This document shows positions 27,540 to 64,000 of a stretch of DNA of 64,000 bases, piece after piece. Both the position numbers and the translations under genes were made by a program. This DNA comes from Amphiscolops sp. MND2022. Its lineage: Eukaryota. The stretch lies in assembly GCA_964187785.1 (NCBI GenBank), contig OZ076409.1:5582001-5646000 (forward strand), written 5' to 3'. Below the pieces are notes generated by a model, which was given only the letters and a program-made list of their open reading frames with translations, was not told the origin of the DNA and searched no databases. Numbering within the stretch: the first letter of the stretch is position 1; every line of letters begins with the position of its first letter.

Positions 27540-27885
27540 TGAAGTACCTTGGATTTGTTTAAGTTTTAGAAAGTTATCAGATCTTAGATGAATTATTTTA
27601 AAAAAGGTACAGTACTTTAAAGAGACGCTAACAGAGCTGCAGTGTTAGGTCTTAAGTCAAGACAACTTGATTGTGAAGAGTAAATTAGCGTTGTGTCGGA
27701 TATAAATCAGATTGATGCTTTACAATGTTGAGTATGGTATTGAATATAAATTAGATATCTTGATTACATTAATATTCAGAATACAAACATCTAGTCTAGA
27801 CATTAAGCAAAGAGGGGGGGTGAATGATCGAATATGAATTAAAAGTACATCAGTAAATGATCGAATATAAATTACAAGTATATCA
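27540..27885 (-). repeat. 3' LTR of element C (about 346 bp)
   Basis: Minus strand TGATATACT...TTCA, preceded by AAACCCGGTGGGA; matches 63835-64000. Confidence 0.85.
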
Positions 27886-28908: not shown

Positions 28909-28924
28909 TGGAGAACACATTTTA

Positions 28925-28941
28925 TGGCGACCACAGAGGGA
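28925..28941 (+). promoter_or_regulatory. Primer-binding site, tRNA-Arg-like
   Basis: TGGCGACCACAGAGGGA resembles the complement of the tRNA-Arg 3' end (...UCCCUUCGUGGUCGCCA type) and lies 16 nt from the LTR end. Confidence 0.75.
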
Positions 28942-31285: not shown

Positions 31286-32125
31286 ATGAAAACTAACAGT
31301 TTGCGTAACCTTTGGAATTCTATAACGAGAACATTAATCAGCACGAACACCCGGCGATGCTCTAATCTTTCAAGAGGGGGGAGGAAGGACACGTCGCGAC
31401 GCGCTGAAGCATCGAAAACACCAGACCCAACGGGATGCGAGACAAATCGCAGTGCAATATCAGACCTGACCTCAGACCCCAGGGAGGAAGATTGGCCAAC
31501 TGATGACAGTTTCGTTATGGAACCCGATTTTTCAGACCCTATGTCAGACGACGCATCGGAGAAGTATCAGGCCAAGCCGGTCGCCAGGACTACCGATGAT
31601 ATCGGAGGTTCAGTTGACGAAACAGGAAGTCAGACCCATACTTCCAAATGGTTGCTGAACTTACCCAGCGCTGTCACACCCTATGGTGTAGATGACACTG
31701 GAGCGTGGCCTAACTCCAACAAGACGAATGAAGATGAAGTAGAAATGAGCTGCCTGAATGCGACGGGGCAATTCAAAGCTCCAAGCACTGCGAGTGAGGG
31801 CACAGCTCATACCACAGAAGTACTCCAACAAATGTCCTATATAGGAGGCATGGATTATGCCAGGGCACGTCTTCAAGAAGCTACGGCTCCCCGAGCATCT
31901 GGGAAGGGTAAGCAAGTACGGCCCCCAGCTTTATTAGCACTAACCAGTACTACAGGACCTCATGGCGATTCACGCTCATCCTCACCCTCATCAAAAGCTG
32001 CATCTGCCCGATCTTCGGCATATCGAGCCGTACATGAAGCAGCGAAAGCGCGCAAAGCTCTATTAGATGCTCAGATAGGCGTGAAGCAAGCTGCTTCACA
32101 ACTGTCTGAGCGCAAGGCAAGGTGA
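31286..32125 (+). CDS. Disordered N-terminal part of element D Gag; in frame with the next ORF across one TGA
   Basis: First ATG at 31286. After TGA at 32123-32125 the same frame continues D-R-E-H-Q-S-I into the ATG at 32147. Confidence 0.8.
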   Translation: MKTNSLRNLWNSITRTLISTNTRRCSNLSRGGRKDTSRRAEASKTPDPTGCETNRSAISDLTSDPREEDWPTDDSFVMEPDFSDPMSDDASEKYQAKPVARTTDDIGGSVDETGSQTHTSKWLLNLPSAVTPYGVDDTGAWPNSNKTNEDEVEMSCLNATGQFKAPSTASEGTAHTTEVLQQMSYIGGMDYARARLQEATAPRASGKGKQVRPPALLALTSTTGPHGDSRSSSPSSKAASARSSAYRAVHEAAKARKALLDAQIGVKQAASQLSERKAR

Positions 32126-32146
32126 GATAGAGAGCACCAGTCAATA

Positions 32147-39640: not shown

Positions 39641-41047
39641 TCAACCAACGCTCGCTATGGCCTGCGACGCAATCGTATTCCCAGATATCGTTGCGGAACA
39701 TGTGGCCTACGAGACTGCGAATGTAACTACATGGTCCATGCGGGCTTCCCAATTAAACCCCAGGGAGTCCTGCTAGCACGTAAACAGGAGAAAACGCTTC
39801 CAAGCAGCACGATTGACCGTTTGGTAATTCGAGCTGAGAAGACTTATACTGGGCTACAACGCAGCGACACTCCATATCCTGTGAACTATATCCTATCCAA
39901 AATGAAAGATTCTACGATAGCAAAGGCCCCGTGCCCAAGATTCAAGGAGTGGACCTATGATCTTATTTGTTTGGATTTCACATTACCTATCACTGTTCCC
40001 CCCTTGCCTACAAATTTTGCTTTTGGTCCTTTCAACTATGAACGAGAACCTATCCAAATGGTACGCTGTATCCCTGCTGACCTTTTGTATGACAAGTACA
40101 ACGTCACCGCAAAACCAGGAGACGTTTATCAGTCTGCAACCAACTGGTGGCTACTAATTACGGCCAAACAAGTGTCCGACCTGGTTCATCCCAATAACTT
40201 GAGCACCTGTCTGGAGAGTTTGCGGACAATGGCCTCTCCTGATAGAATCACTTGTTTCCACACCATAGACCTGTATCGTGGTAAAATTAAGTTTGAATGG
40301 TGGCTGGAACTTATCATAGCAGTCTTATCGAGCTTTTCACGAATCCGATTCCTGGACGATTGGACGCACTCATTTTCTAGTCCTGTATCACTCCAATCAG
40401 CCCTACACGCACTGGATACATGGTCCAGGGCTAACATTGATAACCAATCGTTGCCGCGATCTGTGTGGCAAGACTTGGGCGCCATTAAAGGCCTCCTTCC
40501 GAACACATGTGACGATGCTCTCTCCAATGACCCCGGACGAGAGTTAATATACCATGGAGCCGTGAGACCTCAATTGGTTGACTATGTGCAGTATGCCAAT
40601 ACGGACTTCCTGCAAACTCCCCATCATATTGTTTTATGTTGTCCCGCAAACCTTGAGACTAATTCTGCCGCTCTTCGTTACGTCATTCGTGAGCATGGTG
40701 CAGATGCAATCTTTCAACTTCTACCGGAGGTTGGCAATATTGTGACGCTACCCACATCTTTGATAGACGGCCATCCTCAGACTATCCACCTTTTAATCAC
40801 ACGAGCTACACCTCGCTGCCCTATGCTCGCTGATATTCTCTTGGGATGTCTTGATCATTTGAAAACGTTACTCGAGCGCTTAGAGGCGATAGAAGTACAC
40901 TTTGCCATCATTGATCCTGAGCGCCCAATACGTAATCTTTTCGACTTTTATACCTGTTTGATGGACGTATTCGCTGACACGCCCCTGACCGTCGTTCTTC
41001 ACGATCGCGTTTACGTATCTATCGCAAGCGTCGCTAGCTTTCCGTAG
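39641..41047 (+). CDS. In-frame continuation of Pol: RYGLR motif, Cys cluster and two degenerate macrodomain-like repeats (TARG1/Poa1p type)
   Basis: The frame stays open from the TAA at 39638-39640 (STNARYGLRRNRIPRYRCGTCGLRDCECNY) into the ORF at 39731. Two repeats show the pattern C.padl...pG.v....llIT......L..CL..L...idxxr...vf. Confidence 0.75.
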   Translation, partial: STNARYGLRRNRIPRYRCGTCGLRDCECNYMVHAGFPIKPQGVLLARKQEKTLPSSTIDRLVIRAEKTYTGLQRSDTPYPVNYILSKMKDSTIAKAPCPRFKEWTYDLICLDFTLPITVPPLPTNFAFGPFNYEREPIQMVRCIPADLLYDKYNVTAKPGDVYQSATNWWLLITAKQVSDLVHPNNLSTCLESLRTMASPDRITCFHTIDLYRGKIKFEWWLELIIAVLSSFSRIRFLDDWTHSFSSPVSLQSALHALDTWSRANIDNQSLPRSVWQDLGAIKGLLPNTCDDALSNDPGRELIYHGAVRPQLVDYVQYANTDFLQTPHHIVLCCPANLETNSAALRYVIREHGADAIFQLLPEVGNIVTLPTSLIDGHPQTIHLLITRATPRCPMLADILLGCLDHLKTLLERLEAIEVHFAIIDPERPIRNLFDFYTCLMDVFADTPLTVVLHDRVYVSIASVASFP

Positions 41048-41269
41048 AACTTTTTGTTTTTCCTTTCGCTCTTTTTTTTTCTTTTGTCCGCTCGATTAAG
41101 TTTAGTGAATCGACACGGAGTTTACTTGAAACAAATACGTTACCTTTTCTTTTAATGTTAATTTGTGATATCCTATTACTTCCCCTGGTATTACCCTTAA
41201 AGTGACCTATGGTGTTACCCTACTATCAAGTGTGCTACAATCGACCTGCACTCTTTCAGAGTTTCCGTC

Positions 41270-44200
41270 ATGAACCAAAGTGACGATGAAAGCAACTACG
41301 TCCCTCCAAGATCTTCAGATGACTCTCCTGCCTTGGGGCACCGCGTTTACGACACTGCGCGTGTCCAGCGTACCCCACAAATTGCTTTCATTCGAGACAG
41401 ACTCGACCAAGGTCTGTCGCCAGCTACAGTAGCCGGGGTGGCGGCGATCATAGCCCAGATGGAGTCACAAGTGCAAGCCCCTATGCTGACGATATCTATC
41501 ACTTCAGGCTTTCCTGGGTTCCAGCGATCTATGACGTTCCAAGATGGAGTGTGGTACGGCCATGATCTCACACATCACTTTACGGATGATCGTGCAGCGA
41601 TCTCATACAGTCCTGCGAATGGCGGAGTCCATCAGACCAGATCTCTACAGATCCCTTCTTGCCCGCCTCCACCTCCACCGCCACCTCCTGTATCAATGCC
41701 ACAAACAGTAGTGCGTGCAAGCACTTCTGCTCCTGCAGTACCTAACTTGTCCAATCAACCAATGGCAGAACAAGCAGTTATCTCAGCACTGCAAGCAGTA
41801 GCTATCAACCCTAATTACGCTGATTTCATGCGATCCATGGAGCAGTGTTGGCCTGAACTACGCCAAATTGCTCTGCCTACTGTTACTATTCGCAACGAAA
41901 ACGCCACTTTGAACCAAACAAGTTAAGATGCTATCACTATTCCTCACGTCAATCCTCAGTCTGAACAGCCAGGGCACTCCCGCACCGTGACTGTAGAGCG
42001 CAGTCGTTCGCCTTCCCGCTCTTCTCAAAAGGGGGGAGGAGAGAGCCGCCCTGCCTCCAGAAAACGCAATGACCGTTCTCCAACAAGAATGAGTGCTCAA
42101 CAACCACTAACTGCTCGTGACAGCCCCTCGAGCAAGCCACCACCCGACAAAAAGATCTCCAACGAGAAGGCCACAACCTCCAAGACGCCAAACCAAACAA
42201 AATCAAAAGTGTCGGAAGCATCCGTGCTTCCCTCACCCCAGCCACAACCAAACGCAACAGGCGAACAACAAGGACTGCCGCAGCCACCACCCACGCAGTC
42301 TACAACACGCGAGTCGCTGGCTCAACGAGCGGTTCCTAAGACTTCTACATCAAGACAGCCACAAACGGAGCAAACTGTGGTTTATCAAGGCACCCCTGAA
42401 CCTCAGCGAACTGTCAAGGACATAATGGGTGATTACCCAGGATTGAAGGTAACCAACAGTGGTCCAACTGGAACCCCACTCCGCAAACAGGCAATTCAAC
42501 ACCCAACTAAGAGGACCTTTACAAAGCAACCGACGTACCTGAGTCCAATGCAAAACACGAAGGGCAAGCTGATCACCAAGGACTCCCGACGTATCTGGGA
42601 ATCGGCAGTTATTGTATCACCCGAATGGCTGTTTGAAAAGAACATGTGTCCTCCGAATGACGAAGAGCATGCGAAATTGAAGAAGGCGAAAGTATCTGTA
42701 TTCATGAATCGTCCAATTCGCCCCGACCACACCCCTACTAATGAGCCGCCATGGCTAGGGAAGGCAATGAATATTCTGCCAAACGTAGAAGACAACTACT
42801 TGGACGCCCTCAACATTGACCTTCGTGGGCAATTCGCTGCCGATACTTCCTCAACGCTGGAGAGACCTTCGAGATCAACCCGCGGTACGCCCGTGACCTC
42901 GAAGCCCAGCTACCAATGCCAAAAGAAAGGTTGCAGCGTGCGCGCTTCGCCTTACTTGTAGACTCGACCTTCCTCAAAAATATCCCTATTGACAATGTGC
43001 TGTCAGACGTGATGGTTTTCACTCTACCGCTGTCACGTATCCCCGAGATGGCTGAAGTGTTGGTCACCATGTTTGACCCCGAGATGACGGGGACCTTCAA
43101 AGAGCCACCCCCACGCAGAGTGATCATCAGTAACGTTTTCGATCACATGGCCTGTGAAGGACTAATGGCCCAGATCGCGAACGTTGAAATCATAAATCCA
43201 ACTCCAGCACAGCGAGCAACAGTACGCAACGCAGTACTGAATGTGGCCCGAGCCATGGAAAAAGCCCAAAATATCCTAAAGAATAAACTCAACGTGCCAG
43301 TCTTGTTTGTAACACCCCCAGGTTTCTGCCAGTGGCATCCCGCCTTGCAGAGATTTATCTATATGGTAACAGAAATTTGCAAATGTAGAGAAATAGACTT
43401 TGCGATCTGCGCGCCCAATATGCGGATCAGCTCCGACGACTTGCGTCCCTCCTGGCTTTCCTACATGGGGTACGTTGCCTCAGTGTCTAAAGTGCTACAG
43501 TCAGTGGAAAAGACAGGGAACGCGCAGCTGACAATCGACGATGCCATCTATTTTGATCACGGCACTCGTATGGGCTTGTTAGTATTCAGCAACAACGGAG
43601 AAAGGCGAGTCCCAGAACCTAGCACGGCTGAATGTCAGGCAATCCGCCTGAATAACTGGATGGAGCGCGCGCGCTCCTCCGGTGGAAAGACTTGCATTAA
43701 AACTGATCTTGCGGAAGTCACCGCCATAATGAGCAAAATCCCCAGCGACCGAGAAGTGGAACGAGCCATCCCGCGAGTTCAATTTGCCCAGGACCTCACT
43801 ATTGACCAACTATCAGTGGGAATGAGGTATATCGCTGCAAAATTGACGAGCGAGACTCAGGCTGAAATCCAAGCCTTCAGCAGCACCTACGACGCTTGGT
43901 ACCAGCGGCTGCAAACTACCACCGTAGCAGACATTGCAAAAGAACTTGGGATGTCAACCGACCAATTTGCCATCTGTTTGGGATTGGGTTGGAGTCCCGA
44001 TGTTATTCGAGTTGAGTTCGGCTTGGACGAACACTGGTTGATCGGAATCAGCAAGATTATCGGCACCATGCAAGTAAACGAACTCTTTGCACTGATACTC
44101 ACCTTCGGGCAGAAACGCTTCGTAGCTGGCCCAATGATGATATTGACCGACCTGGTTACTGAGTGTAATCTGGAATGGCTATTTTCGTATTTAGTGATTG

Positions 44201-45625
44201 CGCGAGGCAATATCTCAGGCCTCACCGCCTTAGCCAAGCTGCTACAACGAAAAGACGCTCAGGATTATCCCGCTCACCTGGAGCGCATGACAAGTTCGTT
44301 ATATCACTGGATATACTGCAGTCTGGTCTTTGCCTCGGGACTTTTCGTGGGCGTAGATAAGCACCAACCATTATATGACGGACGTCAGCTGGTGACCGAG
44401 GTAGCTGGATTTCTGACACCTAACCAGCTGGCAGATTTCACTTTGGCTGAAGTCGAAGACCTTGTACCGGTGTTAGCACCCGTGCTAACTCCGATATTTG
44501 GCCCAACCGGGATACTTCGCTATCCCACCAAGCCTCTGCGACTCGCCTGGGAAACACCAACAGTCTCCATCCTGACTTTTCTGAAGAATGTAAAACCGTA
44601 CAACTATCAGCAGATGCTTGAACGCGGGTTGTTCCATGTATACCACCATAAAGAACGAAACGCAGCAGGACGAAAACCTGGCCGGCATTCTCAAAGCCCG
44701 GACAAAGAAGGCGTGCCCTTTACCTCGCGAATACGGCCCGGTGAATTGGTACAATTCGCCCCTAGATCACCATGGAATCCCACAGCGATTCAATTGGAGT
44801 TTCGCACACCTCAGGAAGTACGTGACCGAATGCGTACAAGCCATGGGCGGTCACACAAACCAGGGGTATAATTTTCAGATGATCAAGCTTCCAGCCAGGT
44901 ACTGGCGAGGACCCATCGGCTATGCCCGGGCTAAGCCAATCAGCATGGTTGAGAAAGGCTTTAATGAGCAGTACGCCTATCGCGATCACTACAAACTAGG
45001 CGTGTGGATGTCAAGGACCCTGGAGGAACGCCAAGGGCGCCTAAAAGGCTTGATCATCCCTCCACAGACAATGCCTGTTTGGAATCCAGTGGCGAGGGTC
45101 ACTATGGGAAGCGACATGCCAGCGGAGACCTGCTACCATGTCATGGAACTGCTGAGTGATCCCCTCGGACCCGAATGGGAAGCCTCCAGGCAAATTATAG
45201 AACATGAAAACAGGGACAACTGGTCCAGAGCCTGCGGGCTCTGGGGCCGACCTGATCTACGCCCGAAACTCAGTGCCAAGCAGAAACGACCCATTGCCAC
45301 CCGCAATAGACCGCTAGATCTACCACACCTGTTTAATGCCAGTAGATTGGATGTGCAGATCCCAACCTCCACGTCGACCACAAGTTCTGCCAATGTTAGC
45401 GGCTCAGCCAATGCAGCGCAAGAACATTCGCCAGAAGTCTCAACTCCCGTAGCTGCGGAAAATGGCCCTAGTGGCTCAAACACGACTCCCAGGACCCATG
45501 AAACTGCCAGCGCCGAACCAAGGCCAGTCCTGCGAGAAGGAAATGTGCGAAGAGGATCCCTGTCCGAACCACAACCGAAAGCCGACGTCTCCCCCAGAGC
45601 GCGTCAATTCTCCGCCACCCAGTAA
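41270..45625 (+). pseudogene. Accessory ORF of element D (about 1450 aa reconstructed; one in-frame stop and two frameshifts) with an SGNH-hydrolase-like domain
   Basis: 41270-41926 and 41987-42961 share a frame across one TAA; frameshifts near 42820-42845 and about 44630 join 42916-44871 and 44618-45625. SGNH-like blocks: FALLVDS, VIISNVFDH, VLFVTPP, SDDLRPSWLSY. Confidence 0.75.
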
Positions 45626-46621
45626 AACAAACCTAACATTATTGCCATTCTGTTTTAAACTTCAATAGTCCTGTGCTAAATGAACCTTTGCAAAACCTCA
45701 TGGTTTCAACCACTGTTGTTGCTAAACTTTGATTTTGGAAGTGCCAATTGGTCATGGGTAAAAACCTCCAAGTGGAGATGAAGCCCCCGGGCTTCATCCT
45801 CCTCATTATTCCGTTTTGGGACCGGCAACCCAACCATAAAACTACGCCTTTGCCTTGCCTTAGTTAAATGCATTATTCAATTTGCAATTTGTGTTTGCAG
45901 TTAGTGCTTTTTCAAGCTACCTTATGCTACCTTATGGATGCGCTGTGCGCACTCCGTGCTCTGAATTTTCGGTGCTATTACACCCTTTTAGTTACTAGTT
46001 ATTGTTTACACTGTTGCTATTGTCGAAAAAGACAAAAGGAAAAAAATGAAGGAAAAGGAAACAAAAGGAGAGAGATGAGAAATGGATAGAATAAAAAGAT
46101 TGATGGACCTAGACTATTGTTTTTTCTTTGAGTTACCTGATAGGATTGAGAGTAAGTCTCGCAAAAGAAATTTTATATTGACTGTACTTATTGGTTGATT
46201 TTATGGCAACTGCTTATCAAAAGAACTTTTATCAAACGCCAAGCAGTGCGAAGCTCCCGAGCTTCGGAAAATAAATTTTGAACTGTCATGGTCGTTGACC
46301 TTAAAACAAGTTTTAACACTAACGGCAAAAAAAAAATTTTGTATGAAAGGCCGAAAAGAAATTTTAACGCCTGAACTGCTCACGACAGGCTACAAAAAGT
46401 AATAACCTTGCCGTATAAGATTTGTATACGAAGTTGTATTAATTTGATCAAAATGCAGCAACGCTGGGTCAAAAACACTTCCACGAGGCCAACTTGACGA
46501 CGTCCCAATGAACTGCCCAGCGCTAGTTGATGTGCACTCTACCTCCTCAGTGGGACATAGATGACCCTGGGTAAAGACTCGATGATGCCAACCCACACTT
46601 GACGGGGACGTCAAGACTAGA

Positions 46622-46635
46622 CCCCGGGGAGTGTA
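46622..46635 (+). promoter_or_regulatory. PPT-like tract of element D
   Basis: CCCCGGGGAGTGTA lies directly before the 3' LTR. Confidence 0.7.
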
Positions 46636-47368
46636 TGTAGCGATTACCTATCGAGTACACGATTTCGAAAGTTTCGATGAAACTTTCGTTCAAGGGACTA
46701 TATCCCCTCTACTGAAAAGTCATATTCCGCTGGACGGCAGCGTGTCTTTATTCAAGTACCTGCCCACAAAATTGAAGAGAATTTGAGCAAAAGACTCCGG
46801 TCAGACCCCAACCGAACGAGAAGACTGCAGAAAAACACGGCCGCTGTCAGAAAAAGACTCAAATTTCTGTCAAAACGGACTGAACTTTGTTTTAGCCAGT
46901 GCTTTCTTCAGCGAAGCGTTACAAGACGCTGTGATTACCGAAATTGAGTCAATTGGCTTGACCAAGCATCCGTGCTTGTGTCCCCGGCTAATTGCTGCCT
47001 CAAAAGTGCTAATTATGTAGTAATTTTCGTATTTTCTTGTTGTAACAGCTCGTGAGCTACTTATTTCGATTTCCTGTGTAACTTCTAAAAAACTTGATTT
47101 TCCTTTCCACCACTTGCATTTTTCAAAGGCTATCTAAGCGTTGGTTCCGAAGAAAAAGCGTAATGCGCGCTACTGTTAGCAATTACAGACTGGATCAGGC
47201 CGGCGAGCACTTCTTAAGAAGCGGAATCCTCCTCTGACGGGACATTTCTTACCCGAAGGAGGCAAAATGGACTCATGGCCATGGGCGCCTGTCCCGGGCA
47301 AATACCCATGCCATGTGTTCCTCCTGCTCTTATGGTTACGGCGACAATGGTGAGAGCTTGTCGTTACA
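46636..47368 (+). repeat. 3' LTR of element D
   Basis: Direct repeat of 28176-28908. Confidence 0.98.
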
Positions 47369-48789
47369 TGATATTCATATGGAGTTGGGGTGAAGTTTGA
47401 AAAGGTATAATGATTTGAACAATTATAGTTTTTACATCATCAATTTTTTATTGTTTGTTTTCCGTGGGGGTTTTGAAAAGTTTGTTTAAGGAGGCATTGA
47501 TTGACATGTGAAGACGTGGTGAGAAAAAGTGATGAGTAGCAGAAAAAGAGCAAAAATGAAAAAGAACGGCCCTGTTGACAAACATGAAGATTCATGAAAG
47601 ACGAAGAATTCTTAGTTATCGTGTCAACGTAAGCGTTTTCCTTACGCGCGTTTTTTCGTGAAAACACAATTAATGAGTTTGAGAAGCTTCTGCGGCCAGA
47701 AGGCGGCCTAAACGAAATCAAAAAATTCAAAAAACAAGTCAAGTATCAGTCAATATGTGTTCACAATTCGATCACATGAAGCGGGTAAACGAGCGAAAAA
47801 GAATTGAGTCAGTCAGGAGTTGTCATTAAAAATATCATTTGATTAAAAATTAAACGCAGTGGTAAGTAATTTTTATTATGTGAACTAGGAGAAGTAAAAA
47901 AGATTTGGGAAAACTGTTAAAACCGAAGTTATTGAAATGTAAGGTAAAGATTTTTGTGAGAATCAGGTGAAAAGTGGAGTTGCGGTTTTTAAAAAATGTT
48001 GGGAAATGGAGTCAAAATTTTAAAAATTAGCAAACGCACCACAAGAACAGTTGAAATAGACTATACCGATTATGCTAAGAGAGAAAACATATCAAATATT
48101 TTGTAGAATTGAAATTAGAGGTGTAGAAAGTTGAAATTTAGAGCATCGAAAAACAAATTTTTACTGATTATGTAAACAAAAACGTTACTACAATATTTTA
48201 GATTGTACGGAAAGAGAGCGTAGTCACGAAGAGTAAAAAGGGAACATTCGGGGTGTGAAAATGGAGTGATTGTTAAATTATTTTGAGTTAAATCAAAGAA
48301 GCGAGGACATATTTTTATGAAAAATATAGGGGAATTGTGCATAATTTTACTTAATCAACCTCTTTAAGGGATGTAATCATAGGAGGAAATCCGTTGAGCG
48401 AGTCACGAAATAGGGGGGCGTAAGAGATTCGATGCTAACCGGTATTAGCGGCGGATTTGACGCGGGGAAGGGGAAATGAATGGGAATTACAATCATTGTG
48501 GGTTAGATAAGAACATTTTTGTGGGAACCTTTACGAAAAGGTTCTGGGAAATATTGAAAATTGAAATCTATCGAAAGCTGGAGGAGGGAGAAATTAAATG
48601 TGAAAAATTGGAGGAGAGTGAAGGTTGAAGATGAATTAGGAAGAAGCAGGAATTGTAGGAGTTTAAAGGTCCTATAGTTTTCTTAAGAAAGTCATTAGTT
48701 TGTGAAGTGGACAGAGTGAGGGATTGCATATCCTTGTTATGGAGATGAAGGAGATGTTGATGGTTGCGGTAGGTGTCAAAAAATGGTTA

Positions 48790-49400
48790 GGGATTACAAA
48801 CGGATCAGTATTAGGAGAAAGTTCAATATGTAGGCGATGAGAACATAGGAGGATGATAATGGTGGTACAACAGCAGTAGGAGGATGAAATGAAGAATCAG
48901 TAGATGGAAGAACATGTTTTGGAAAAGCAATAATAATTTCATCATTAATATTGTGTTTGGTGGGAAAATACTTATAATATTGTTTTTCTAGAATGAAAAA
49001 AGAGAGTTTAGCAATTACGAATTTCAGTTCGGCAATGGAGTTATGTTTGTGGACAAGGGATGTATAAAGAACACGAGAGTGATCATCAACGGGCGTTTCG
49101 ACTAGTTTAGTCATTTTTGGAAAGAAATTTGAGACATTTTTGGGGATGTGTGCAGGTAAAAGAAAATCATCATTGAGATTGAGTGCTGCCTGGGGAATGA
49201 AAAGAGAACGAGTAGGATCATGGTAAGGAGAGATAATTTAATATTGTTTAACTGGATCATAGTTATGGATAGTGCCAATTGTGAAGAGGTAGTTTACAGA
49301 ATAGTGAGATTGGTATGAGAGTAGAGAAGTGAATTTATGATTTTGAAATGTGAAGTTTTGGGGATGTTTTTGTTCACGAAAAAGTTTTTAGGTTTGATGG
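48790..49400 (-). pseudogene. Post-env accessory ORF remnant of element C, also present in element A (about 16090-16420)
   Basis: IGTIHNYDPVKQY..YHDPTRSL...DDHSRVLYTSLVHKHNSIAELKFVIAKL versus element A IGKIRSYDPVKQ..YREPTR...DDHARSLYVSLEHKH.LIAQLNFIVARL. Confidence 0.65.
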
Positions 49401-50999
49401 TGAAGGTTGTGACACAAGGAGCAGAGGTGATATCGTTTGCGTTAGTATTAAGGTCATGCTGTGTTGGTTTAGGAAAGTTGAATTGAAACTGGAAGAAACA
49501 AATTCAGTCATTATGATAGAAGGAGAGTTGTTCAAGATTTTTGGAGGCATATGCAACATAGTGATCAAAGTTGCTATCTTGTGGGAAGCGAAATTTATAA
49601 GTGGTAGGATTCATGTAAAAAGAAGAGAGATTAGCTTCAAAAATGGGGTGAGTGCATTGAAGTTCATCGGTCATAGTATTGGATTGAGAAGGCTGTTTGA
49701 CTGGGTTTAAGATAGGATGAAGAAGACCAGAATCAAGGAAGACAGGATCTTCGAATATGTTAGATTTTTTCATGGTGGGAACGGTATAAGTGGCATGGTC
49801 AATAGTTAATTGAAGACACTTATGTGGAGGAGTAGGTGAGTGACGAGTTTTAGGAGTAGAAGTGGTAAGGTGAGTATTTACAATTGGAGTAGTGGAAGAG
49901 GAAGGTTTAATTTCAGTAGTGGTTTCAGGAGTTGTGGCGACTTCGATATTGATCGCGTCAGTGTTATGAGGGAGTTCAGGTGTACCAGATTTAGGAGACA
50001 AAGGAGGAGAGAATGAAGCAATACTATAAAGGAGTTCTTCATTACATACAGAGCAGGACATTTTGACCAAAGTTATTGAGTTATTACTGAGTATATGCGA
50101 AGTTGTTTTTTGAAATGTTCAAAGAGTTAGATATTTTATATTAGATATAGTATAGGGCAGAAATGTGCGCTGTGTGGAACGAACGGTCTGAGATATAGAG
50201 GGTAGGTGATTTAGAGATTACAGATGCAGGAAGACAAATTAATTGTAAAAAGAATTTTGACGAAAGTAAAATGAATTTGGAAGCAAGATTAAACCAAGAA
50301 AAGAAGAGATTGGGAGATGGCGACTGATCAATGAGAAGAAAAAAAAGAGAATGAATGGTGGAGTGAAGAAGAGAGATCGGTAATTAATCCGGGTAAAATG
50401 ATCCAGGGGAAAGCGACATGAGAATAAAAATTTAGCAGGGCTTTCCGGTGGAGTGAATATGCAATTAACAGATGCTAATGTGATGTCCTTAAATTTCATA
50501 GGTGGTGGAGTAGGAGGATAAATTTTAGTTGATTGCCATACATTGCGGACATGGGAATTATCAGAGGAGTTGTCAATATTGGTATCTTCAGGGGGAATGG
50601 AATTGTGTGAATGAGGAGGAGAAGACAAAGAAGGTAATTGAAAGTGTCGAGGTTAAAACTTAGTAGGTGGATTAGTATGTAAACTATAATAAGGAGGGAG
50701 GATGGTGAAGTATTGTCAGTTAATGAAGAAGTGGTATTAGAAGGATATGGTGGAAAAATATTAAGTGAGGAGGATTTCTTAGGCGAGATTAAAATTTTTA
50801 TTTTTGAGATTTAAAATTTTAGATTTGATGTTAGGTTTGTATTTATGAGATTTCATAGTTTTGTTTTTTGTTTTATGGTGTGAAAGAGACGGGGTGTCAG
50901 AAGCATTGGAGGCGGAGTTAGAATCAGGTGGTTTTGTCATAGCAGTCATCATTGTTTTGGTTACTGTTCCAAAACGCCGTAACCAAACCAAGAAACAAG

Positions 51000-53050
51000 A
51001 GAGTCTGGTTTTTCAAGAATTTACTTAACAGTAAAGGAGCAGTATAAACTATGATCACTAAGCTTGAGTGAACCATTCAGGTGAAAAGAAAGGAGTTAAT
51101 TTTACCATATAGTCATGGAGACCGATTCGGAGTGATTTATAAGGATTATTTGCGATAATTTCAGACGATTGTTTACTCATCAATTCATAACTAATACCTT
51201 TACCTAAAAGTTGTAATGTGTTGTCAGAGTGTTCCAAAAATAAATTTCGATTCCAAAAGTCTTTAAGTTCTTTTTAGAATATAAACCTGCATCTTGGGCA
51301 GTAGAGGTGTTTGGGAAAATAGCAGTTTGGTTTTGTTTAGTTTCGAATAATTGAGGAGTGTCTTTTTAATAGATTGCGGATTTAGGACAAAAAATTGATC
51401 AGGTTCAAGAGCACAAACATTTTGGGGGTTAGTTTTGCATGAGAATTGATTTGCATTATTGAATGTTTGACGTGTAATTGGGTCAACATTCATAACATTG
51501 TCAAGATGAGAGATCGGGATTTTATAATAAAATTGTTCAGCTATGTATAAAGCGGTGAGGACAATCATAGAGCCAGAGAGAGGTGGTGAGGACAATCAGA
51601 GAGCCAGGCAGTAGGACTTTCAGTAAATAGAAAATTACTACGATTTTGGGTTTGGAGAAAACCAGCAAATTGTAAATTCTAACAGACATTGCGATGATGG
51701 TCATAAGTTGGGTTCTTTCAACTTCACAAACAGTGTGAAGAAACTTCAATTTGGCAACGGACATTGTTTTGAAGACGCGAATAATAGAATAGTCAGTTTT
51801 AGTGAATATGTGAGCTTCATATTCAAAAGTGGCGAAATTGTTAGAGGAGTTCAGGGCAGGTAAAAAGAGTTTCTTTTGAGTATGTACGAGTTTACGAGAA
51901 TTGAGTTGAGTAGAGAGTTTGGTATATTGTTCAACTTCAAGGAGTTGAAGAGGATTACCAATATGCATATTGAACCCTTCTTCATATGTAATAAAGAGTT
52001 CAGGATATTGATTAGTATACAATGGTGTGGGCTTATTACAAAACGTTTTACTTTCGGGGAAGAGTCGGGTTCGAGAATTAGAGTCAGGGTAAGGAATTTG
52101 AGATAAAATATGAGATTTATTTTTGATAGAGAAGTGTTCAAATTCAAGCCAATAACGGTTGTTCAGTTTAGACATACGTCCATTAAAGGAAAGGATGGAG
52201 AAAGTTAAACAACGATCTTCGGGGAACCAAGCAATTGTGAACGGGGTTAAAATGGTAGGTTTGCAAAAACCATCAGCATAGAGACAAGGTAAACTATGAC
52301 CATGATAGAATAATTTGTTATCTTCATCGTCATATGTTGATTCAATTTCACGAACGATTAAAGACCAACTTTCTTTTTTGATTATTCATTCATAGCGATT
52401 CCAACAAACAACTGTTTCTTTAAGTATTGAAGTTAAAATAAGTTGAGAGTTAGTTATCAAGCAGAAGCACCATAATGAAATGTGTTAGGTTTAGTTATTC
52501 GAAAAAGAGGTTGTTCAGTTTCAAGAAGGCGTTGTGTTTGAAGATCAACAATAAAGGTAAAGGAGTTACTGTAAACAAAAGCGTTAAGTTGAGGAATATC
52601 AGTACCGTTTAGATGACGGATAGCATGTTTGCATTCCGTGGGGTCTAAAATACGGGGGCGTTTAATAGAATTTTGTTGGTAGTCAAAACGATCATGGCGG
52701 CGATATTTGTAATCAGACTGGGCACAAACAATTTTTTCTCGTTTAACATAAACTTCACATGTCCAAGTTTTGAGGCGTTTAGCTTTAGCGCGAACAAAAA
52801 CGTTAGCAATAGCACGAGTACTTTCAAATGATGAAGGGTCTTGAGCACAAGGTTGTACTCTGGTTAAATTGAACTGACGGAGGTTGTGTTGTTTAGAACA
52901 ATCATAGTGAGATACTAGGAGGTCAGAGATATGGGGATCATTAGGTTCTACTATGTCAGTAGAGGGGTCAAGTGAGAGAATGAGGAGAAAAATATTTGAG
53001 GAGGAAAAGAAAAAGAATTGAGTGTTTGAAAGAGGAAGTCATGAGAGAAA
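51000..53050 (-). pseudogene. env-like glycoprotein, class III fusion protein (herpes gB / chuvirus G-like), frameshifted
   Basis: Hydrophobic leader, then SHYDCSKQHNLRQFNLTRVQPC, TCEVYVKREKIVC, LHTVCEVERTQLMTIIAMS, AWL(S/Y)DCPH and KIPI...VDPITRQTF...FSC...PQNV. Located downstream of integrase. Confidence 0.7.
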
Positions 53051-55199: not shown

Positions 55200-58100
55200 A
55201 TATAGGAAAAAATTAAATTAGGTTATTTGGGGTAAAATGGTAAAATAGGATTTCTATGAGTGTGAAATGTGGAATCATCTTGGGCCATAAGTTCCTGAGG
55301 TTTGTCAGAGAGATGTTGTTAAGTTTTATATTGGCCCAAACGAAGGAGTTTGAGTTTACTTAAAATTTAACAGGCCTAAAATTAGTGTGTATACCAAAGG
55401 TGTGAAGAGGAAGTTGTTTTTAATGTGTGGTTTCAAAGATGGAATTTTGTGAGTTTATTTTTTTGTGATGTGGCGATGAACAGTAGAATAATTTTCTATC
55501 ATCGCATGTTAGCGGAGAAGGCCCATGGAGAATGAGGTTTGGTTATGAGTGAGTGAAAAAATGGGTTAGGATCTTGATTACTATAAAGTGTGTGGAAGAG
55601 AATTGCAATATGTTGCGATACAAGATTTAGAAGAGTCGTGTGCTAGATTGGTCAGTGACGAGATTTTGTGGTGGGCCAAAGTAAGTAATCCAATGATGGA
55701 GTGATGTTTGAATAACATATTTTGAGGAGATTTGAGGAGCAGGGATAGTAACAACAAAATGACTGAAAGCGTCGATTATAACACAATAAGAATTTCTTTG
55801 AAACGAGGGAAAATAGGTCCTTTAGTGTCCATAGAAAATTTGTAATTAAAGTGAGTTGCGTTTTCATAAAAAGGTAGTGGACGAGAGATATTATTAGGTT
55901 TGATAAGAAAATGTTTGTTTGTTTGTTTGGCATTCAATATGGATGAAAACGGAAAACCATAAAGGTAGGTGAGGAATATAGTACAATTGGTTAAAGTTTT
56001 AATAGAGTACTTTTCACCTGAGTGACCATGTGAGTGAGTTTTGTCAAAGGCAGCAAAAAAGAGTTTAAATGGTGAACATATTCGAGTTTAATTAATAGCA
56101 GGTTCAGTGTTGATGGTGTTGATGAAGGCGTCTTCAAAAATACGAGAGTCGGGAGTATAGTATTTAATGAGGTATGAAGTTGGGTCAATATATAAAAGTT
56201 GAAACTGTTTATAATAAGTATAGAGGAGAGAGTTAGCTTCAATACCTGGGGTTACAAATGGAGGTCTTTGTTTTTGTTTTAACCATTCATATACCATTCA
56301 AGAGGACATGGTCGACTTTCTGAGATGAACAAATATCCGAGGGAAGAAAGAAATTTTCAAAAGCTTTATATTGGGCAAAGAAGGAAGGGTCAAAAATGGT
56401 AGTGAAATTGTAGATGTGGATTTGATTGGAGTTTTGCTTATAGCATTCGATTGAGAAATTTCAGTAAGGGAAACGGAGTCATTATCGAAATGTGGAGTTT
56501 GAGTTTTCTCGATATAGATTAAAATATCGTGAGAGAGGTGAGAATCGTCAAAGTGTTGATGTTAGATTTCAGCTAGGAGAGAATGAATAAGATGAGATGA
56601 CTGAGTTTTGTGTGCAATTTGGTGGGGAAATCTTTTGGAAACGGGATGGGTATGTTCATATAAGTCAGTTTCCTTTAGAAGCGGATGATTTTAGATTAAA
56701 ACTTTAATTTTATTCTTTATGTCTTTTTTGTATTTTTTCAAAAAAAGATGAAACAGATATAAAGGAGACTGAGTGTAGAGGAGTACAAGTAACAGTGTTC
56801 CCTCTGTCTAAGATACGGAGTGTGAATTGATCATCACCATAATTAACTAAGATTTGACACATTTTATTAGTAATTTGAGAATAATCTCGACTGAGCATAT
56901 CAGCAACAGTTAAACTTGTTCCTGCTGTGTTAACAATTTGGAGATTAGAGAATTTAGTAAAATAACCTTTGGGCTTTATATTGTCTTGGGGTTAAATTTT
57001 CTTTGCGTGTAAAACGAAAAAGGATAGGATTGTGATCCATGAAAACAAAGATTGGGAATTTGGAACCAATTATCAGACACTCATATTGCGAGAGAGCAAA
57101 AGTTAAAGCACAAAGTTTTCTATCATATGTAGAGAGTTTTTGTTTTTGGGTGGTTAAAATACGAGAGTTATAAGATATACCTTGCATTTTGTTATCGATG
57201 TTGGGTTGAAATAGTAATGCACCTAAACCAATTAGAGAGGCGTCAACTGTAATTTTAAAGGGATGGGTGGTTTTGGGAATCGCAAGTTCGGCATCTATCG
57301 AAAGAGAAGCCTAATTTCATCAAAGAGTTTGTGCAGTTCTGCAGTCCATTCAAAGGAAATATCATTTTGAAAGAGAGTATAAAATGGTTTAGGAGAGATG
57401 TGGAATTTGTTTATAAACTTGGAGTAGAAATATATTGAGCCAATGAATCGCATCAGTTCAGTTTTAGAAGTGGGCGTTTTCAATTTGTGGATACCAACAA
57501 TTTTGGATGAAGTTAGTTTAATAGTATTGTTGCCAATTTCATGTTCAAAAAACTTGACAGTGAGACGAGTATAGATGGATTTTTCAGGAGCTATTTTAAG
57601 GTTGTTGGAGCTACAACTCTGCTGTAGTTGTTCAATTAAATCTAACATATGAGTTTTTGTGTGAGCAAGATGGAGAATGTCGTCAAAATAGACAAGTGCA
57701 AAGCCTTGCTTGATCAAGGAGTTTTTTTGAAAAGTGAGTACATTTGTGTGGTGAAAAAATTTGGGAGTCCCTTGAGACCATATAATCCTCGAATGAATGC
57801 ATAAAGAGTTTTGTCTTCAGAGGAGAAACAAGTGAGAGAGATAGTTTTTTCATCTAGAGGGGCATTTGCATAGGCATACATAAGGTCAATTGCAGATTTG
57901 ATTTTGTTATTTGCACGAACAAGTTGAGGAGCTAGAGGTTCGATATGCTAAGATTCAAAGGATTGATCAGTGTTAGAGTGTAGGCGTCAGGCGGCAAAAA
58001 CTACCTATTTTGTATCTCCTTTAGGGATAATATTGAGAGGACTTAAAAAGATGGAATCATAAATGGATTAATCAGAAGGTTGGAGCCAGTTTGTTTATTG

Positions 58101-58900
58101 ATATTATGGTGTTCGAGTTCATCGAGTAATTTTTTAAATTTATCTCTGAAATGGATAGGGACTTTAGTGGGTCGTTGAGTTTGAAGTTTGGCATTTAGTT
58201 TGAGGCGGATTCTAAAAGGAGTGGCTAATCGACCAACATCATTACGATGAGTAGTATAACAATGTTGATATTTAACCATATTGGAACAAAAGTTTAAATA
58301 TTTAAATATTCGTCATCATTGACATCAGGGTATTGGAATTCGAAATTGTTGAACATATGGGGAGCGAACAAAAATAAAAGCGGACGATTTAGAATTTGGG
58401 GGGGGATTATTGATATCAACTTTAGATCGTTTAAGAGAAGAACGACAAAGAGGCGGTTTTGGTTCGGAAAGATGAGGGTAGTGTGTGTGAAATATAGTTA
58501 GTATCAAACGGTTGACGTCATTTACTTTATAATGTGGTGGTTCAATGTTTCAAAATTAGTTGAGGGAACTTCAATATAACCTATATATCCTGGTGAGATT
58601 ATAGCTGAGGTGTGGGTGGTATTTTGAATTATGACAGAACACCTGTAGGGTTCAGTTTTAATATTCTGATAAACGTGGAGGAAATTAAAGGTAGAGTTGA
58701 AACGAGTGGTAACATATGGATGTGGGTTGATGGAAATATGATTTCAGATTCAGATGTTTCAATCGTTAACGGAAGAGTAGGTTGAATTCGGAAGTGAATG
58801 ACTGGAGAGGCGTTCGGATTAAAATATATTTTAAGTTTCACTTTAATGGTATAGATGTATGAGAAGTAAGGATAGTCCTTTTTTATGAGCTGTAAAAGGA
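55200..58900 (-). pseudogene. pol remnant of element C (dUTPase-like region, RT, RNase H, integrase)
   Basis: HRNDVGRLATPFRIRLK, ALVYFDDI, LMRFIGS, VDASLIGLGALL, YDRKLCALTFAL, ADMLSR, MDTKGP, GPYK. Confidence 0.9.
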
Positions 58901-58907
58901 AGAGTGA

Positions 58908-59107
58908 NNNNNNNNNNNNNNNNNNNNNNNNNNNNNNNNNNNNNNNNNNNNNNNNNNNNNNNNNNNNNNNNNNNNNNNNNNNNNNNNNNNNNNNNNNNNN
59001 NNNNNNNNNNNNNNNNNNNNNNNNNNNNNNNNNNNNNNNNNNNNNNNNNNNNNNNNNNNNNNNNNNNNNNNNNNNNNNNNNNNNNNNNNNNNNNNNNNNN
59101 NNNNNNN
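58908..59107. other. Assembly gap (200 N)
   Basis: Run of N. Confidence 1.
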
Positions 59108-59850
59108 AGATAGGCTTAATTCCATCAGCAATGGATTAAAGTGAACGCAAATGTATGACTTATGCACGACAAAATGAACAAAAACATTTGACAAAATGTG
59201 AGCACGAATTATTCAAATTGTAAAAATCATATGTTCTGGCTAAGAGGTATTTAGATAGGGAATGTTTCAACGTTGTCAAGGACATGTCAAACGAAATGAT
59301 TTTCAGCCGTATGAGTTCGTTAGCAGCACGTGTTGATCGGATGAAAAAGTTGTCATCAGTAGAAATTTTGCGCGAAGAAGGAATCTGAAACAGCCCGATT
59401 GAAGAGGATCGTGTTGGCAAGGAAACAGAAGGGATGCTACAATGCACATCGATAGCTCCATTACAGAGTTTCCAAAGAAAAACGATGTCATCTCTGATCA
59501 GGCAGTAACACACTGGAAACATCTTGAGAGATTGAAGGCCTGAAACATACGAAGAGCAATTAGTTATCCAGCGAAGAACTTTATACTGAAATAATTCGAG
59601 TTGATGTAACATAGTTAAAGAAGGAGACCAGGCAGGGGCACCGTAAAGTAAAATAGGCAGGATAAGGGATTTGTAAGAAGGAATTTTCTACTACTAGAAA
59701 CAGAGAAGGGAATACTACGTTTGAGGAAGCCGAATATTCTGTTGCATTTAGGAAGTTTCGATTCAACATGAGGTTTCCATGATAAAGAGCTGGATACAAT
59801 AAAACCCAAATCTTCGATCTGATTGACAAATATAGAGGTTGACAAACCAA
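59108..59850 (-). mobile_element. 5'-truncated non-LTR retrotransposon (CR1/L2-like LINE) 3' end inserted in element C
   Basis: RT thumb region IEDLGFIVSSSLSWKPHV...CNRIFGFLKRS, then LELFQYKVLRWIT and a short 3' UTR with a stem-loop running into the gap. Confidence 0.85.
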
Positions 59851-59919
59851 GTAGCGGGAGTGATAGCGTTAGCGTGACTATTTGACTTTTGAGAACATGA
59901 GGAGATATTTGGGTGATAC

Positions 59920-61800
59920 ATATTTATTTCGAATTTAGGTTCTGTTCAGGGAGAATGATGAAAATTAGGAACTGGTGGTTGAGTAAGATTGATAGTAGGT
60001 TTGTAATGGGAATTTGAACAATTCCTTGAGTACGAGTGAGATCGGCTTCGATATCGATCAGAACATGGTTTAAAAGGAGAGCGATAGGGTGTTTTTTAGC
60101 GTCTAAAAGATGAGTTATTATAGCTAGAGGAGCCTTCACGCGAACGAGGGTAAGGTTTATATGGACTACGAGATGAGGTTGAATTATTATAGGTGCGAGA
60201 AGAATAAAATGAACATGAGGAGGAGTTTTTATAATGTTGATCATAACGAGATCGGTTACGATCATAATATGGGAAATGGTTTTGAGAAGAGTAGTTGTGA
60301 TAAAAACTTGGGCGGAAATTTGAGCAAGAATGGGAACGGGATTAATAGCGCGATTCTCGTGGGAATCTTCTATATTGGTTACTATTGCTACGGCTGCGGT
60401 AACGAGGAGTTTGATTATCATGTTTATTGGGGTATTGGGGGGTGTTTTAAAATGTTGATAAAAAGATGAAGTAGGTGATGTGGATTGAAGTATAAATTAC
60501 TTCAGCATATTGATTCTTCGACAACATATTGAGACAGAACGAATATTTTTATGACAAAAGGAGCAGTATTTTCTATGTCGGGGTTTAGATTTATTATAAG
60601 GATCTACGGCTTGTATTTGTAAAGTTTCAGAAAATTTATCGGTATTAGAGGTGTTTTGGGTGAATGTATCTGAGAGAGTGCTAAATTGAAGTGAAAGTTC
60701 TTTTGTTTTGAATTTTACGAGTGTATTATCCTCTTAATCAACCATATTAACAAGAGAGATAAAAAGAATGGAAGGTTCGAGTGAACTTGAAATATTTTTA
60801 ACTTGGCGTTTATTGGCGAAATCTTTGAATTTTTTCTGAAGACCACGAGTAAAAACTTCATTACAATTAAGGTTTATGGTGGGTGGGTATTCATTATACC
60901 AGCCTTGATTAACAAGAGTTTCATCTCCTAAAGCATAGTGTCGAACATTTTCATTGAACATATACAAACTTTTTGAGAATTTTTTTCCGAAAAGTTGGAG
61001 GAAAGAAGACCAATCATTTTCTTGATTTTGAGGGAGACGGTCATACCAAGAGGAGGCAGTTCCTGTAAGGGAACAATAAAGAAGAGATATACGTCTAGAG
61101 TGCCAGGTTAAATAGGGTTGCATATCAAGGGTTGAGGTCCAAGTTGATATGTTACTCGTGCACTAAGTTGAGCTAAGAACTTTTCAGGAGGATACGTATG
61201 ATCCAAGCCATCGAAAAGTTAAATAGGGTTTGAGAGAGCAGCAAAAGGAACTGAAGGAGTCATTTGAAATCCAGAAGGAAGAGGTTGAAAAGCGAGAGTA
61301 TTAAAAGGATGAGTAGATGTTTGAGGCGGTGGGCAAGGGTTAGGAGGAAGATTAGGAGGTTGGAAAGAAGGATTAGGATAATTATGAAAACTAGGATGGA
61401 GTCATTCATAAGAATCATAAGAAGTGGAAGCAGGAGGTGGATTAGATGTTTGAGGGAGATTGTGGGTTGGCAAGGAATATGAATGATTCGGATTAGAGGA
61501 GAGAGTTGGCGGAGGAGATGTATTAGAAGAGTGAGATTGAGGTTGAGTAGTAATAACAGAGAAGAAAGAAATGGGAATTGAGGGAGAGGTTGCTGTATTT
61601 GAGAAGTTGTTGGTTGAATAGTTATTGCGTTGTTACTTGGTGGGGGACTGTTTGAAGGAATATTATTTTGAAGTGGGGAATGAGAAGTAGGCGGCTGAGT
61701 GTTCGTAAAATTATTAGAAGGAGGAACAGAATTACTAGGGGGAAAAGGAGGTGGATTAAGATTAGGATGAGGATTGCCAATAGAGTGCGTGTTTACTAAC
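59920..61800 (-). pseudogene. gag remnant of element C
   Basis: Pro/Ser/Asn-rich N-terminus, capsid motifs (LTGTASSWYDRLP...WSSFLQLF...ENVRHYAL...FTRGL) and an Arg/Ser/Tyr-rich tail. Confidence 0.8.
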
Positions 61801-63490
61801 ACATTGGAAGTAGAAGGGATAATTTGGAGTGAAACATCAGAAGTAATCTCTGAAGTAAGCGTTTGAGGGAGGTATATCTAATATGGTCTGACAGGAGGAG
61901 GACGTTCAAGAATTTTGTTATTACTATGAGTATCATAAGTAAGAAATTCGAAATGAGTGACGGGGAAATCACGGAGTTCATAGAAGGAAATGTCTTGATT
62001 TTCAGAGCTGGCAATAAAAAGAAGAAGTTCATGTTTAGAAAATTGAGAAGGTATGTTAGTACAAGCGTCTGGAATTCCAAATGAGTTGGTAGTTATTTCT
62101 AAAAATACTTCTAAGAATCAAAGAGTATAACCGAATTTGTTCTTCAGTCTGGGTGTTTAAAGTGAAATTTTGAACGAATTGATGTTGGAAGTGAATTTGA
62201 AGAATATCCGTAACAAGCCAATGATGAGGATTATTTTCAAGTGTACGAAGGTGTTCATTATTAGGGATTCAAAATAAATGTCTTTTGTGTGATGTGCTTG
62301 TATAGCAGAGGGAGTGAAAAGATGATGAGGTAGGAGATTATTCTTCTCCGAGAGGTTTTTGAGAAAAGTTATGAAAACATGAGCGATGGGAATATAATTT
62401 TTGGGGTAAATACTTTTACGAAAGGAATTAGTCGGATGAAGAGGAGAGGTGAAAAGTCTAGAGAAAGGACGTTCTTCAGGAGTAGAATTTACAGAATGAG
62501 TGTCAATTTTTTAAAGAAATGAGTCGCGATGTTCACGAATGAGAGGGATAGTATAAAATCTTCAGAATAAGTTTCAAAAGAAAGGAGGACAGTGGTGTTA
62601 TTGATAATGTTTTTAAGTGATAGTGTTAAAATGCGAGTGTTTTCGCGAGAAAGGCGAGGAGAACGAGAAGAATCAACTGCAAATGGGAGAGAAATCAGAG
62701 GAGGAGGAGGTGTATCAGCCATCAGGAATGGTGAAGTGGGTGAAAAATGAGAAAAATACGATCGAGGAGAATATCAGGATCAATACGTGGTTCTGGAAGA
62801 GGTGGTCGATTATTAAAAATATAGAGTTAATGGCGAAAATCTGAATATTAGGAAGAAAATTTCTGTAGAAGAAAAGAGAGGCAAGAGAAAGAATAGGAGA
62901 AATGAGCAAGAGTTGAAAAACTGGAATGCAAGGGTTTGGGTTTGAAAGAAACAGAAAAATATTGAGAAAACGAATAAAGTGAGGAGTTGTTTGGTGGAAG
63001 GTGAAAGTAGTTAGGTTAAAGTGTAAAGTATATTGAAGAGAAGTGGGTAAAATCAATGAGTAGTAGTGTAATTCGGTAGGAGGTATGAGAAAGAGCGTTG
63101 GAGAGAAATTTTACTTTTGGGAAGAAAAGGGAAATGGGAAAATAGTATAGAAAGGAAGTGTGAGAAAAGGAGAGTAGGTTCGAAGATTTTTAGGTAAAAA
63201 GTGTGGTGACCAAGTTTTCAGCAAATCATAAGAAAAACAAGCATAGCAAAAATAATATGAGACAAAAAGTCTGAATGGTTGTAGCAAGGTTTTCGGTTAG
63301 AAACATTGGCTAGAGAGCGAAGAAAATATCAGGGAATGAAATCAATCATGAATTTGTCGACGGCGAGAAAAGCAATTGCAAGCAGGCCACAAAAATCCAA
63401 TATAATCATTAGAGCACAGATGAGGTCATGGAGATTGTACATGTCAAATTTAGGTTGCAAGTTTTTAAAAAAGGAAGAAGATGGAAAAGA

Positions 63491-63767
63491 TGCACCGCCA
63501 GAAGATCGAGTCAAGAGGTTAGCACTAGAAAGTACCGACAAAGTCGAACCATTTTGATTAGTACAAAAGAGACGGTGTACCAGCACGTAGCTTAATCACT
63601 TCAGTGGTGATTAGTACAGAAAAAGGGTTCTACCAGCTTCGAGGCTGAATCACTTTTTGTGATTAGTACAGAAGAATTGTTTGTACTGACGACTTGGTCG
63701 AATGGTTAGTATAGAAGAAATGATGTACCGACTGTATGTCGAATCACTTTTGTTCGCGATTAGTACA
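63491..63767 (-). repeat. Array of 6 structured 40-55-nt units in the leader of element C
   Basis: GATTAGTACA-like cores on the + strand at about 63517, 63556, 63609, 63661, 63704 and 63758. The sense-strand unit is TGTAC-T-AATCAC..GTGATT-CGAC..GTCG-GTACA. Confidence 0.85.
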
Positions 63768-63819: not shown

Positions 63820-63832
63820 CTTGGTCCCACCA
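63820..63832 (-). promoter_or_regulatory. Primer-binding site of element C (tRNA not assigned)
   Basis: TGGTGGGACC lies 2 nt from the LTR and is nearly identical to the element B PBS TGGTGCGACC. Confidence 0.75.
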
Positions 63833-63834
63833 GT

Positions 63835-64000
63835 TAAAATACTTTTGGTTTTGTTTAAGTTTTGGAAAGTTATCAGATGAAATATTTCAAAGGAAAAGTA
63901 CTTCAAAGAGACGCTAACAGAGCTGCAGTGTCAGGTCTTAAGTCAAGACAACATGATTGTGAAGAGTAAGTTAGCGTTGTGTCGGATATAAATCAGATTG
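63835..64000 (-). repeat. 5' LTR of element C (partial)
   Basis: Direct repeat of about 27540-27714. Confidence 0.9.

Follow-up and report, generated by a model that had tools for sequence, protein, structure and literature searches.

The window analysed here is a stretch of 64,000 nt of the genome of Amphiscolops sp. MND2022. On its minus strand, which is the sense strand of a retroelement (element C), positions 63491-63767 hold six units of about 53 nt, the first of them starting 55 nt after the PBS of that element. An earlier note on this DNA had read them as a multivalent, structured cis-acting RNA. The question raised by the locus is whether such an element is real, and what its place directly after a PBS says about its function. 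The units, built on three stems (P1, P2 and P3), are as follows.

63724..63767, minus strand: unit 1, an intact three-way junction with a P1 of 5 bp, an unpaired U, a P2 of 6 bp and a P3 of 4 bp; found by model and descriptor.
63682..63713, minus strand: unit 2, damaged, the 3' strand of P2 (the second stem) being deleted; weak model match (E 0.016).
63629..63670, minus strand: unit 3, of CAGC/GCTG type with a single P1 mismatch; found by model.
63576..63618, minus strand: unit 4, of CAGC/GCTG type, the first P3 pair broken through decay; found by model.
63531..63565, minus strand: unit 5, an intact junction with a P1 of 4 bp; found by model and descriptor.
63491..63526, minus strand: unit 6, decayed; missed by model.

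All six units noted previously are therefore present at 63491-63767, but only units 1 and 5 keep all three stems, and the window copy is decayed. A structure-only descriptor run on 291 nt of the sense strand found three junctions, a number reached by none of 300 shuffles; these are units 1 and 5 and one alternative pairing spanning units 3-4. The fold z-score is modest (-2.2 sense, -2.0 antisense). The stem swaps listed in the earlier note are of unequal standing. The change from CGAC/GTCG to CAGC/GCTG is a genuine double change in the unit alignments of the 68 loci described below, whereas AGC/GCT is not a separate swap but a decayed CAGC/GCTG, and GTACT/AGTGC exists in the subfamily of the window copy but is not kept in other subfamilies. 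A second, decayed junction array of family C type, followed by remnants of sORF1 and sORF2, lies at 6161-6380 (plus strand) of the window.

The host of the array is an env-carrying Ty3/gypsy element, with two LTRs, a tRNA PBS, gag, RT, RNase H and integrase in gypsy order, and then an env-like ORF. The parts of element C in the window are listed here.

63833..64000, minus strand: 3' part of the 5' LTR, 90% identical to 27549-27881; the LTR continues about 165 nt past the window end.
63822..63832, minus strand: PBS, with one mismatch against the family's usual PBS.
63329..63442, minus strand: sORF1, a hydrophobic peptide of 37 aa, 49 nt past the array, with homologues in related families.
63190..63306, minus strand: sORF2, a hydrophobic peptide, 37 aa in relatives and stop-interrupted in the window copy.
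62720..62724, minus strand: stop/start overlap TGATG, shared by the end of a third small ORF and the start codon of gag; five relatives have TAATG instead.
55500..62722, minus strand: gag-pol remnants with many stops and frame breaks.
52460..53038, minus strand: env-like remnant (Pfam Monjiviricetes_fusion, E 1.8e-4, below the cut-off).
27549..27881, minus strand: 3' LTR, separated from the body by the nested element B (28175-47370).

The usual PBS of the family is complementary, over 11-13 nt, to the CCA-bearing 3' end of either of two host tRNAs, tRNA-Val(TAC) and tRNA-Met(CAT). A young relative of element C has LTRs of 322 bp that are 100% identical, with about 19 kb between them. It contains, in order, the PBS, five units, three small ORFs (48, 37 and 78 aa, all hydrophobic), a stop/start overlap, gag-pol as one frame, env and two further ORFs. 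Its env encodes a 923-aa Monjiviricetes-type fusion protein (Pfam Monjiviricetes_fusion, E 1.7e-27), which we take to be the gB type of animal env-carrying Ty3/gypsy elements. One CCHC knuckle and an Arg/Ser-rich tract are found in 4 of 4 Gag proteins inspected. The animal errantiviruses share the LTRs, the tRNA PBS, the gag-RT-RNase H-integrase order and a separate env, but the elements described here are about 19 kb long, small ORFs preceding their gag and two ORFs following their env; UTR, stem-loop and small ORF find no match in the main text of that source (PMC13524379).

Other sequences were noted in and around these elements. Element B, at 28175-47370 (plus strand), is a nested gypsy element with LTRs 98.9% identical and a 2504-aa gag-pol frame, downstream of which are several long frames without a Pfam match. 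Inspection by eye found a LINE-like fragment inserted in the pol of element C (59130-59920, minus strand), and in another copy (L022) a tRNA-like or SINE-like sequence upstream of the array, in place of the PBS side of the leader.

The unit is not peculiar to this copy. Across the genome (1.07 Gb) its pattern is matched exactly 1352 times, and a reversed control 0 times. In a set of 68 loci (L001-L030 and L035-L074, with the near-duplicates L010 and L025 left out), a profile search without pairing information identified 325 units, distributed over 68 of 68 loci; arrays of the family have three to eight units. A PBS lies at most 700 nt upstream in 55 of the 68, at a median distance of 55 nt, and the array is present in well-preserved family members.

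Of 217 distinct cores, 20 recur in two or more loci, and covariation was scored on these. In these 20, 94% of cells are paired, compared with 9-45% for structures slid out of register, and 7 of 13 pairs have double changes; none of 500 shuffles is as high, although this is not a probability because the counted copies are related. All three stems covary, and RNAalifold applied to family C units gives the same junction fold. The third pair of P2 is loose among the 325 units (T-A 152, C-G 77, T-G 44, C-A 38). The loops are 3 to 15 nt long with 10% G. A single base is left unpaired at the junction, and it is a U in 310 of the 325 units. These observations uphold the earlier description of a multivalent, covarying, structured cis-element. 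Its statement that no hammerhead core is present also holds, CTGANGA occurring in 0 of 325 units, and a ribozyme-like processing role fares poorly, given a single unpaired junction base. We infer that folding takes place in RNA rather than in single-stranded DNA; the wobble pairs show no clear favour to the sense strand (G-U 166 against A-C 126 among the 325 units, 5 against 5 among the recurrent cores), the third pair of P2 tolerates C-A (38 of 325), and the antisense strand folds as well as the sense strand (z -7.5 versus -6.1).

The motif, which the earlier note could not assign to a known family, matches none in Rfam: a search with the window array gave only chance-level matches (best E 3.3), and four leaders gave none at E<=1. 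The flavivirus exoribonuclease-resistant RNA is a three-way junction with a pseudoknot from loop to downstream sequence. This candidate was rejected; the junction is present, but loop-downstream pairing is at or below shuffle, and there is no Rfam match. The hammerhead core, B-box, ACTAAY, loop pseudoknot and kissing loops were also considered, and none is conserved.

It had been suggested that the units form a chain of hairpins, with P1 strands pairing across neighbouring units, rather than closed junctions. The two registers were compared by means of two symmetric genome-wide patterns, which record pairing when both outer GTAC letters change, either within a unit or across neighbours. Within one unit there are 20 matches (control 1), comprising 14 C-G (in nine loop types, and not all independent), 1 T-G and 5 unpaired, and therefore 15 of 20 are paired. 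Across neighbouring units there are 5 matches (control 1), comprising 1 G-C, 1 G-T and 3 unpaired, so that 2 of 5 are paired, and the sole G-C match comes from a locus where both registers fit. A tally of registers over the 68 loci is biased, since L055-L074 were taken from the matches to these two patterns, and the fair test is the genome-wide one. On this evidence each unit is predicted to close on itself as a three-way junction whose one unpaired base is a U. Also against the chain are TCTAC..GTAGA units, which are flanked by ordinary neighbours, and a second intra-unit P1 swap, GCAC/GTGC, in L069 and L071; the chain register was rejected. Of 7 well-preserved arrays, 4 keep both P1 end halves with nothing outside for them to pair with, while the other three have a damaged further unit beyond the parsed end. 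Modelled energies do not separate the registers (junction -57 to -73 kcal/mol, chain with closed ends -54 to -73 kcal/mol).

The same core is found beyond family C. Three other large families in this genome, with Gag N-terminal identities of 36-42% to the young relative, keep it once per leader, as the last module of the array and with different stems. The junction GTGC-T-ATCC..GGAT-CAAC..GTTG-GCAC is present in 12 of 12 loci of one family (L091-L102) and 14 of 15 of another (L137-L151; one of the 14 is a T-G variant), and CTGC-T-ATCT..AGAT-CAAC..GTTG-GCAG in 15 of 15 (L103-L117). Of 10 loci of an older subfamily, 2 show a perfect junction and 9 a recognisable one. A descriptor of the core, which was written after family C and the first other-family junction had been seen, is matched by at most 1 of 100 shuffles, never on the antisense strand, and nowhere else in the 19-kb relative. 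Among 11 fully paired cores, each from at least two loci, the invariant positions are a T-A pair of P1, the inner C-G of P1, the unpaired U and the opening pairs of P2 (A-U) and P3 (C-G), all of which except the P1 T-A are fixed by the descriptor itself.

In these families the single junction is accompanied by modules of other kinds. The second module is a bulged hairpin, found at the following places.

L091-L102 at about 545-850, L137-L151, and window 20870-21175, plus strand: second module (bulged hairpin).

Its 5' flank and its bulge covary, in the flank/bulge combinations GG/CC (34) and CG/CG (35), with one mismatch; 12 near-identical copies reduce these counts to about six independent units. 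This pairing is likely to be a 2-bp pseudoknot. One bulged hairpin is circularly permuted inside P2 of a junction, and P2 of the junctions in these families has inserts of 36-90 nt. The third module is an internal-loop hairpin with a conserved RTTTATC / YGANA loop, of which about seven copies precede the single junction (L113-L117, about 4350-4660) in a leader 1.9 kb long. With a single junction and five to seven copies of a further module, the total of sites is roughly similar to that in family C. By energy, the leaders that carry these modules show no exceptional stability (z -1.6 and -0.3). Queries with two more distant families (P0033 and P0042, RT 43-44%) did not find them in the genome.

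Two deleted copies were also examined. In L143 (G000:C10:55077858) the whole array is deleted directly after the PBS, and the deletion junction occurs once in the genome; the array-less copy is thus a single unamplified deletion, which we count as weak evidence for the docking role proposed below. At 20204-24795 (plus strand) the window holds an internally deleted related-family element, with a PBS at 20687, an array of the second module, a junction at 21106 and sORF1, followed by integrase sequence. It was considered as an amplified non-autonomous family that keeps the array, and this was rejected, its internal-deletion junction occurring, out of 40 candidates scored, in the window alone.

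If the array served dimerisation or acted as a folding scaffold, the P1 strands would swap between units or between two RNA copies. GTAC is indeed self-complementary, and the junction and the chain with closed ends are close in energy. However, the non-palindromic P1 variants CTAC/GTAG, GTGC/GCAC and CTGC/GCAG are fixed in amplified families, and complementarity between loops, or between loops and linkers, is not above shuffle. We therefore give this explanation little credence. A subfamily (L048, L049, L069-L073) has a longer leader between PBS and array, with a CGGCCG palindrome that is a possible dimer-initiation site; sORF1 is apparently absent from it.

A role at the level of DNA has also to be weighed, either as an enhancer or insulator array or as a primary-sequence site for a host protein (ACTAAY for STAR proteins, or a B-box). 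The wobble pairs leave the covariation compatible with RNA or with a DNA strand, and ACTAAY occurs in 243 of 325 family C units; as RNA this is ACUAAY, a STAR/QKI site or branch-point motif. Of three other families examined, none (0 of 3) has it in the junction, and the AGTC/GACT variant lacks it too; it was rejected in both capacities. A B-box is found in only 10 of 325 units. Insect errantivirus 5' UTRs do carry enhancer or insulator-modulating DNA, and those of ZAM and Idefix are comparable in that an env-bearing gypsy element carries a regulatory sequence (putative here) in its 5' UTR (PMC1885662). Theirs act as DNA, though, whereas in the present array three stems covary despite spacers of 3 to 15 nt and, in other families, the long P2 inserts. 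A DNA-level function is on this evidence distinctly improbable.

It might further be argued that the array is a neutral by-product of tandem duplication and of template-switch correction of inverted repeats. The number of units changes readily, and template switching can mimic compensatory change. Against this, four families that have diverged keep the core unchanged and in the same leader position, and the rest of the element lacks it, which makes a neutral origin very improbable.

The sequence between the array and gag suggests a different function. It contains two or three conserved small ORFs of 37-78 aa, most of them hydrophobic (window 62720-63442, minus strand; L039, L040, L041, L053, L096, L113, L137). 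In family C relatives the stop of the last one overlaps the gag start (TAATG/TGATG), an arrangement that suggests coupled translation. The MDG1 group likewise has small ORFs (sORF1/sORF2), one of them transmembrane, between LTR and gag, but is described without env, whereas env is present here and the peptides are up to three in number, hydrophobic and shorter; the available part of that account mentions no RNA array (PMC11952523). The array could thus control translation of a polycistronic leader, through internal entry, shunting or repression, and so set the output of small membrane peptides and gag. That it is nearly AUG-free, with linkers of 69% pyrimidine, would suit this. However, the small ORFs rather than gag come next after it, its last junction is separated from the following AUG by anything between about 50 and 346 nt, and arrays differ in size (3 to 8 units). 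The IRES suggested earlier loses its force for the same reasons, namely variable spacing to the AUG and small ORFs between array and gag, and translational control in general seems rather improbable.

The ORFs after env are relevant to a further explanation.

L075 5398-6885 and 7535-8431: accessory ORFs of 495 and 298 aa after env; remnants in two window elements at 48670-50040, minus strand, and 15750-17910, plus strand.

An element with env and two further ORFs probably makes more than one RNA, and the junctions may recruit a host export factor, or a Rev-like protein encoded by the element, so that unspliced RNA leaves the nucleus. A host partner would suit a core common to several families, and there is precedent for an LTR retrotransposon that encodes an export protein itself, namely Cer1 CERV (PMC10309623). 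RRE, RcRE, CTE, MER11 and the Cer1 element are all structured cis-elements of complex retroelements, but the array has no Rfam match, a 5' position, modular repeats and no recognised Rev-like protein (PMC11379458, PMC10309623), and the RcRE and MER11 elements sit at the 3' end (PMC11379458). The 495-aa and 298-aa ORFs match no Pfam family, give no usable atlas match, and on scanning showed neither an arginine-rich motif nor an NES-like pattern; the structure model of the 298-aa ORF is of low confidence (pLDDT 52). We consider a nuclear export or transport element unlikely, while noting that Gag itself aids export in Ty1 (PMC4974528), so that this explanation overlaps with a role in binding Gag.

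On the basis of a fixed junction, free loops, repetition and position, the array is best regarded as a protein-binding site on the full-length RNA. We tentatively propose that it offers multivalent docking to the Gag of the element itself and would in this way mark full-length RNA for packaging. The proposal draws on the covarying stems, the register within units, the core shared by four families and the position after the PBS. The repeated closed junctions would form in the full-length RNA directly after the PBS; a protein, putatively the element's own Gag, would read the fixed junction and not the free loops; and repetition would raise avidity. A similar total of sites across families would suit cooperative assembly and family-specific selection.

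Gag and packaging were chosen because retroviral packaging signals occupy this region, because of the analogy with HIV-1, because Gag has a CCHC knuckle and an Arg/Ser-rich tract, and because family-specific modules suit a family-specific reader. In HIV-1 the packaging signal likewise follows the PBS in the 5' leader, is built as a tandem three-way junction and is bound by a Gag with a CCHC knuckle; but it is one non-repetitive domain, and HIV NC needs exposed guanosines (PMC7599994). Here there are 3-8 near-identical small junctions with G-poor free loops, and Gag binding is putative. Retroviral packaging signals are excluded from spliced RNAs; a scan of five leaders for GTRAG found no conserved splice donor. 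Exposed guanosines of the HIV type are missing, the loops having 10% G and the unpaired junction base being a U. A core common to four families could equally suit a host factor.

For LTR retrotransposons, packaging signals are in general poorly defined (PMC4974528), and no description of such a leader array was found in the open-access literature searched. The unit pattern has 0 matches in the viral contigs searched, and 18 single matches in metagenome contigs, none of them an array. Seven of the metagenome matches (L122, L125, L130-L133, L135) are one shared single-copy sequence with a GTAC-closed stem and an unpaired third stem, probably unrelated to the array. The array is thus a real, structured leader element that is uncatalogued, with no Rfam match and no published description in the literature searched.

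Docking of Gag may be extended to a more specific, and on present evidence doubtful, suggestion. A clade of giant env-bearing gypsy elements may label its genomic RNA with five to eight modules of three interchangeable kinds, in a family-specific mix read by the element's own Gag. The three kinds would be the three-way junction with one U, the bulged hairpin with a 2-bp pseudoknot (also circularly permuted), and the internal-loop hairpin. If this is true, co-resident families would each package their own RNA. The finding adds three uncatalogued RNA folds. It also presents a leader signal that evolution has cut to a module of roughly 40 nt with a seven-base invariant core, repeated, with neighbouring modules swapped between families. 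The long-standing problem of the way in which a gypsy Gag, or a host factor, picks its RNA thereby becomes testable with short RNAs and one protein domain.
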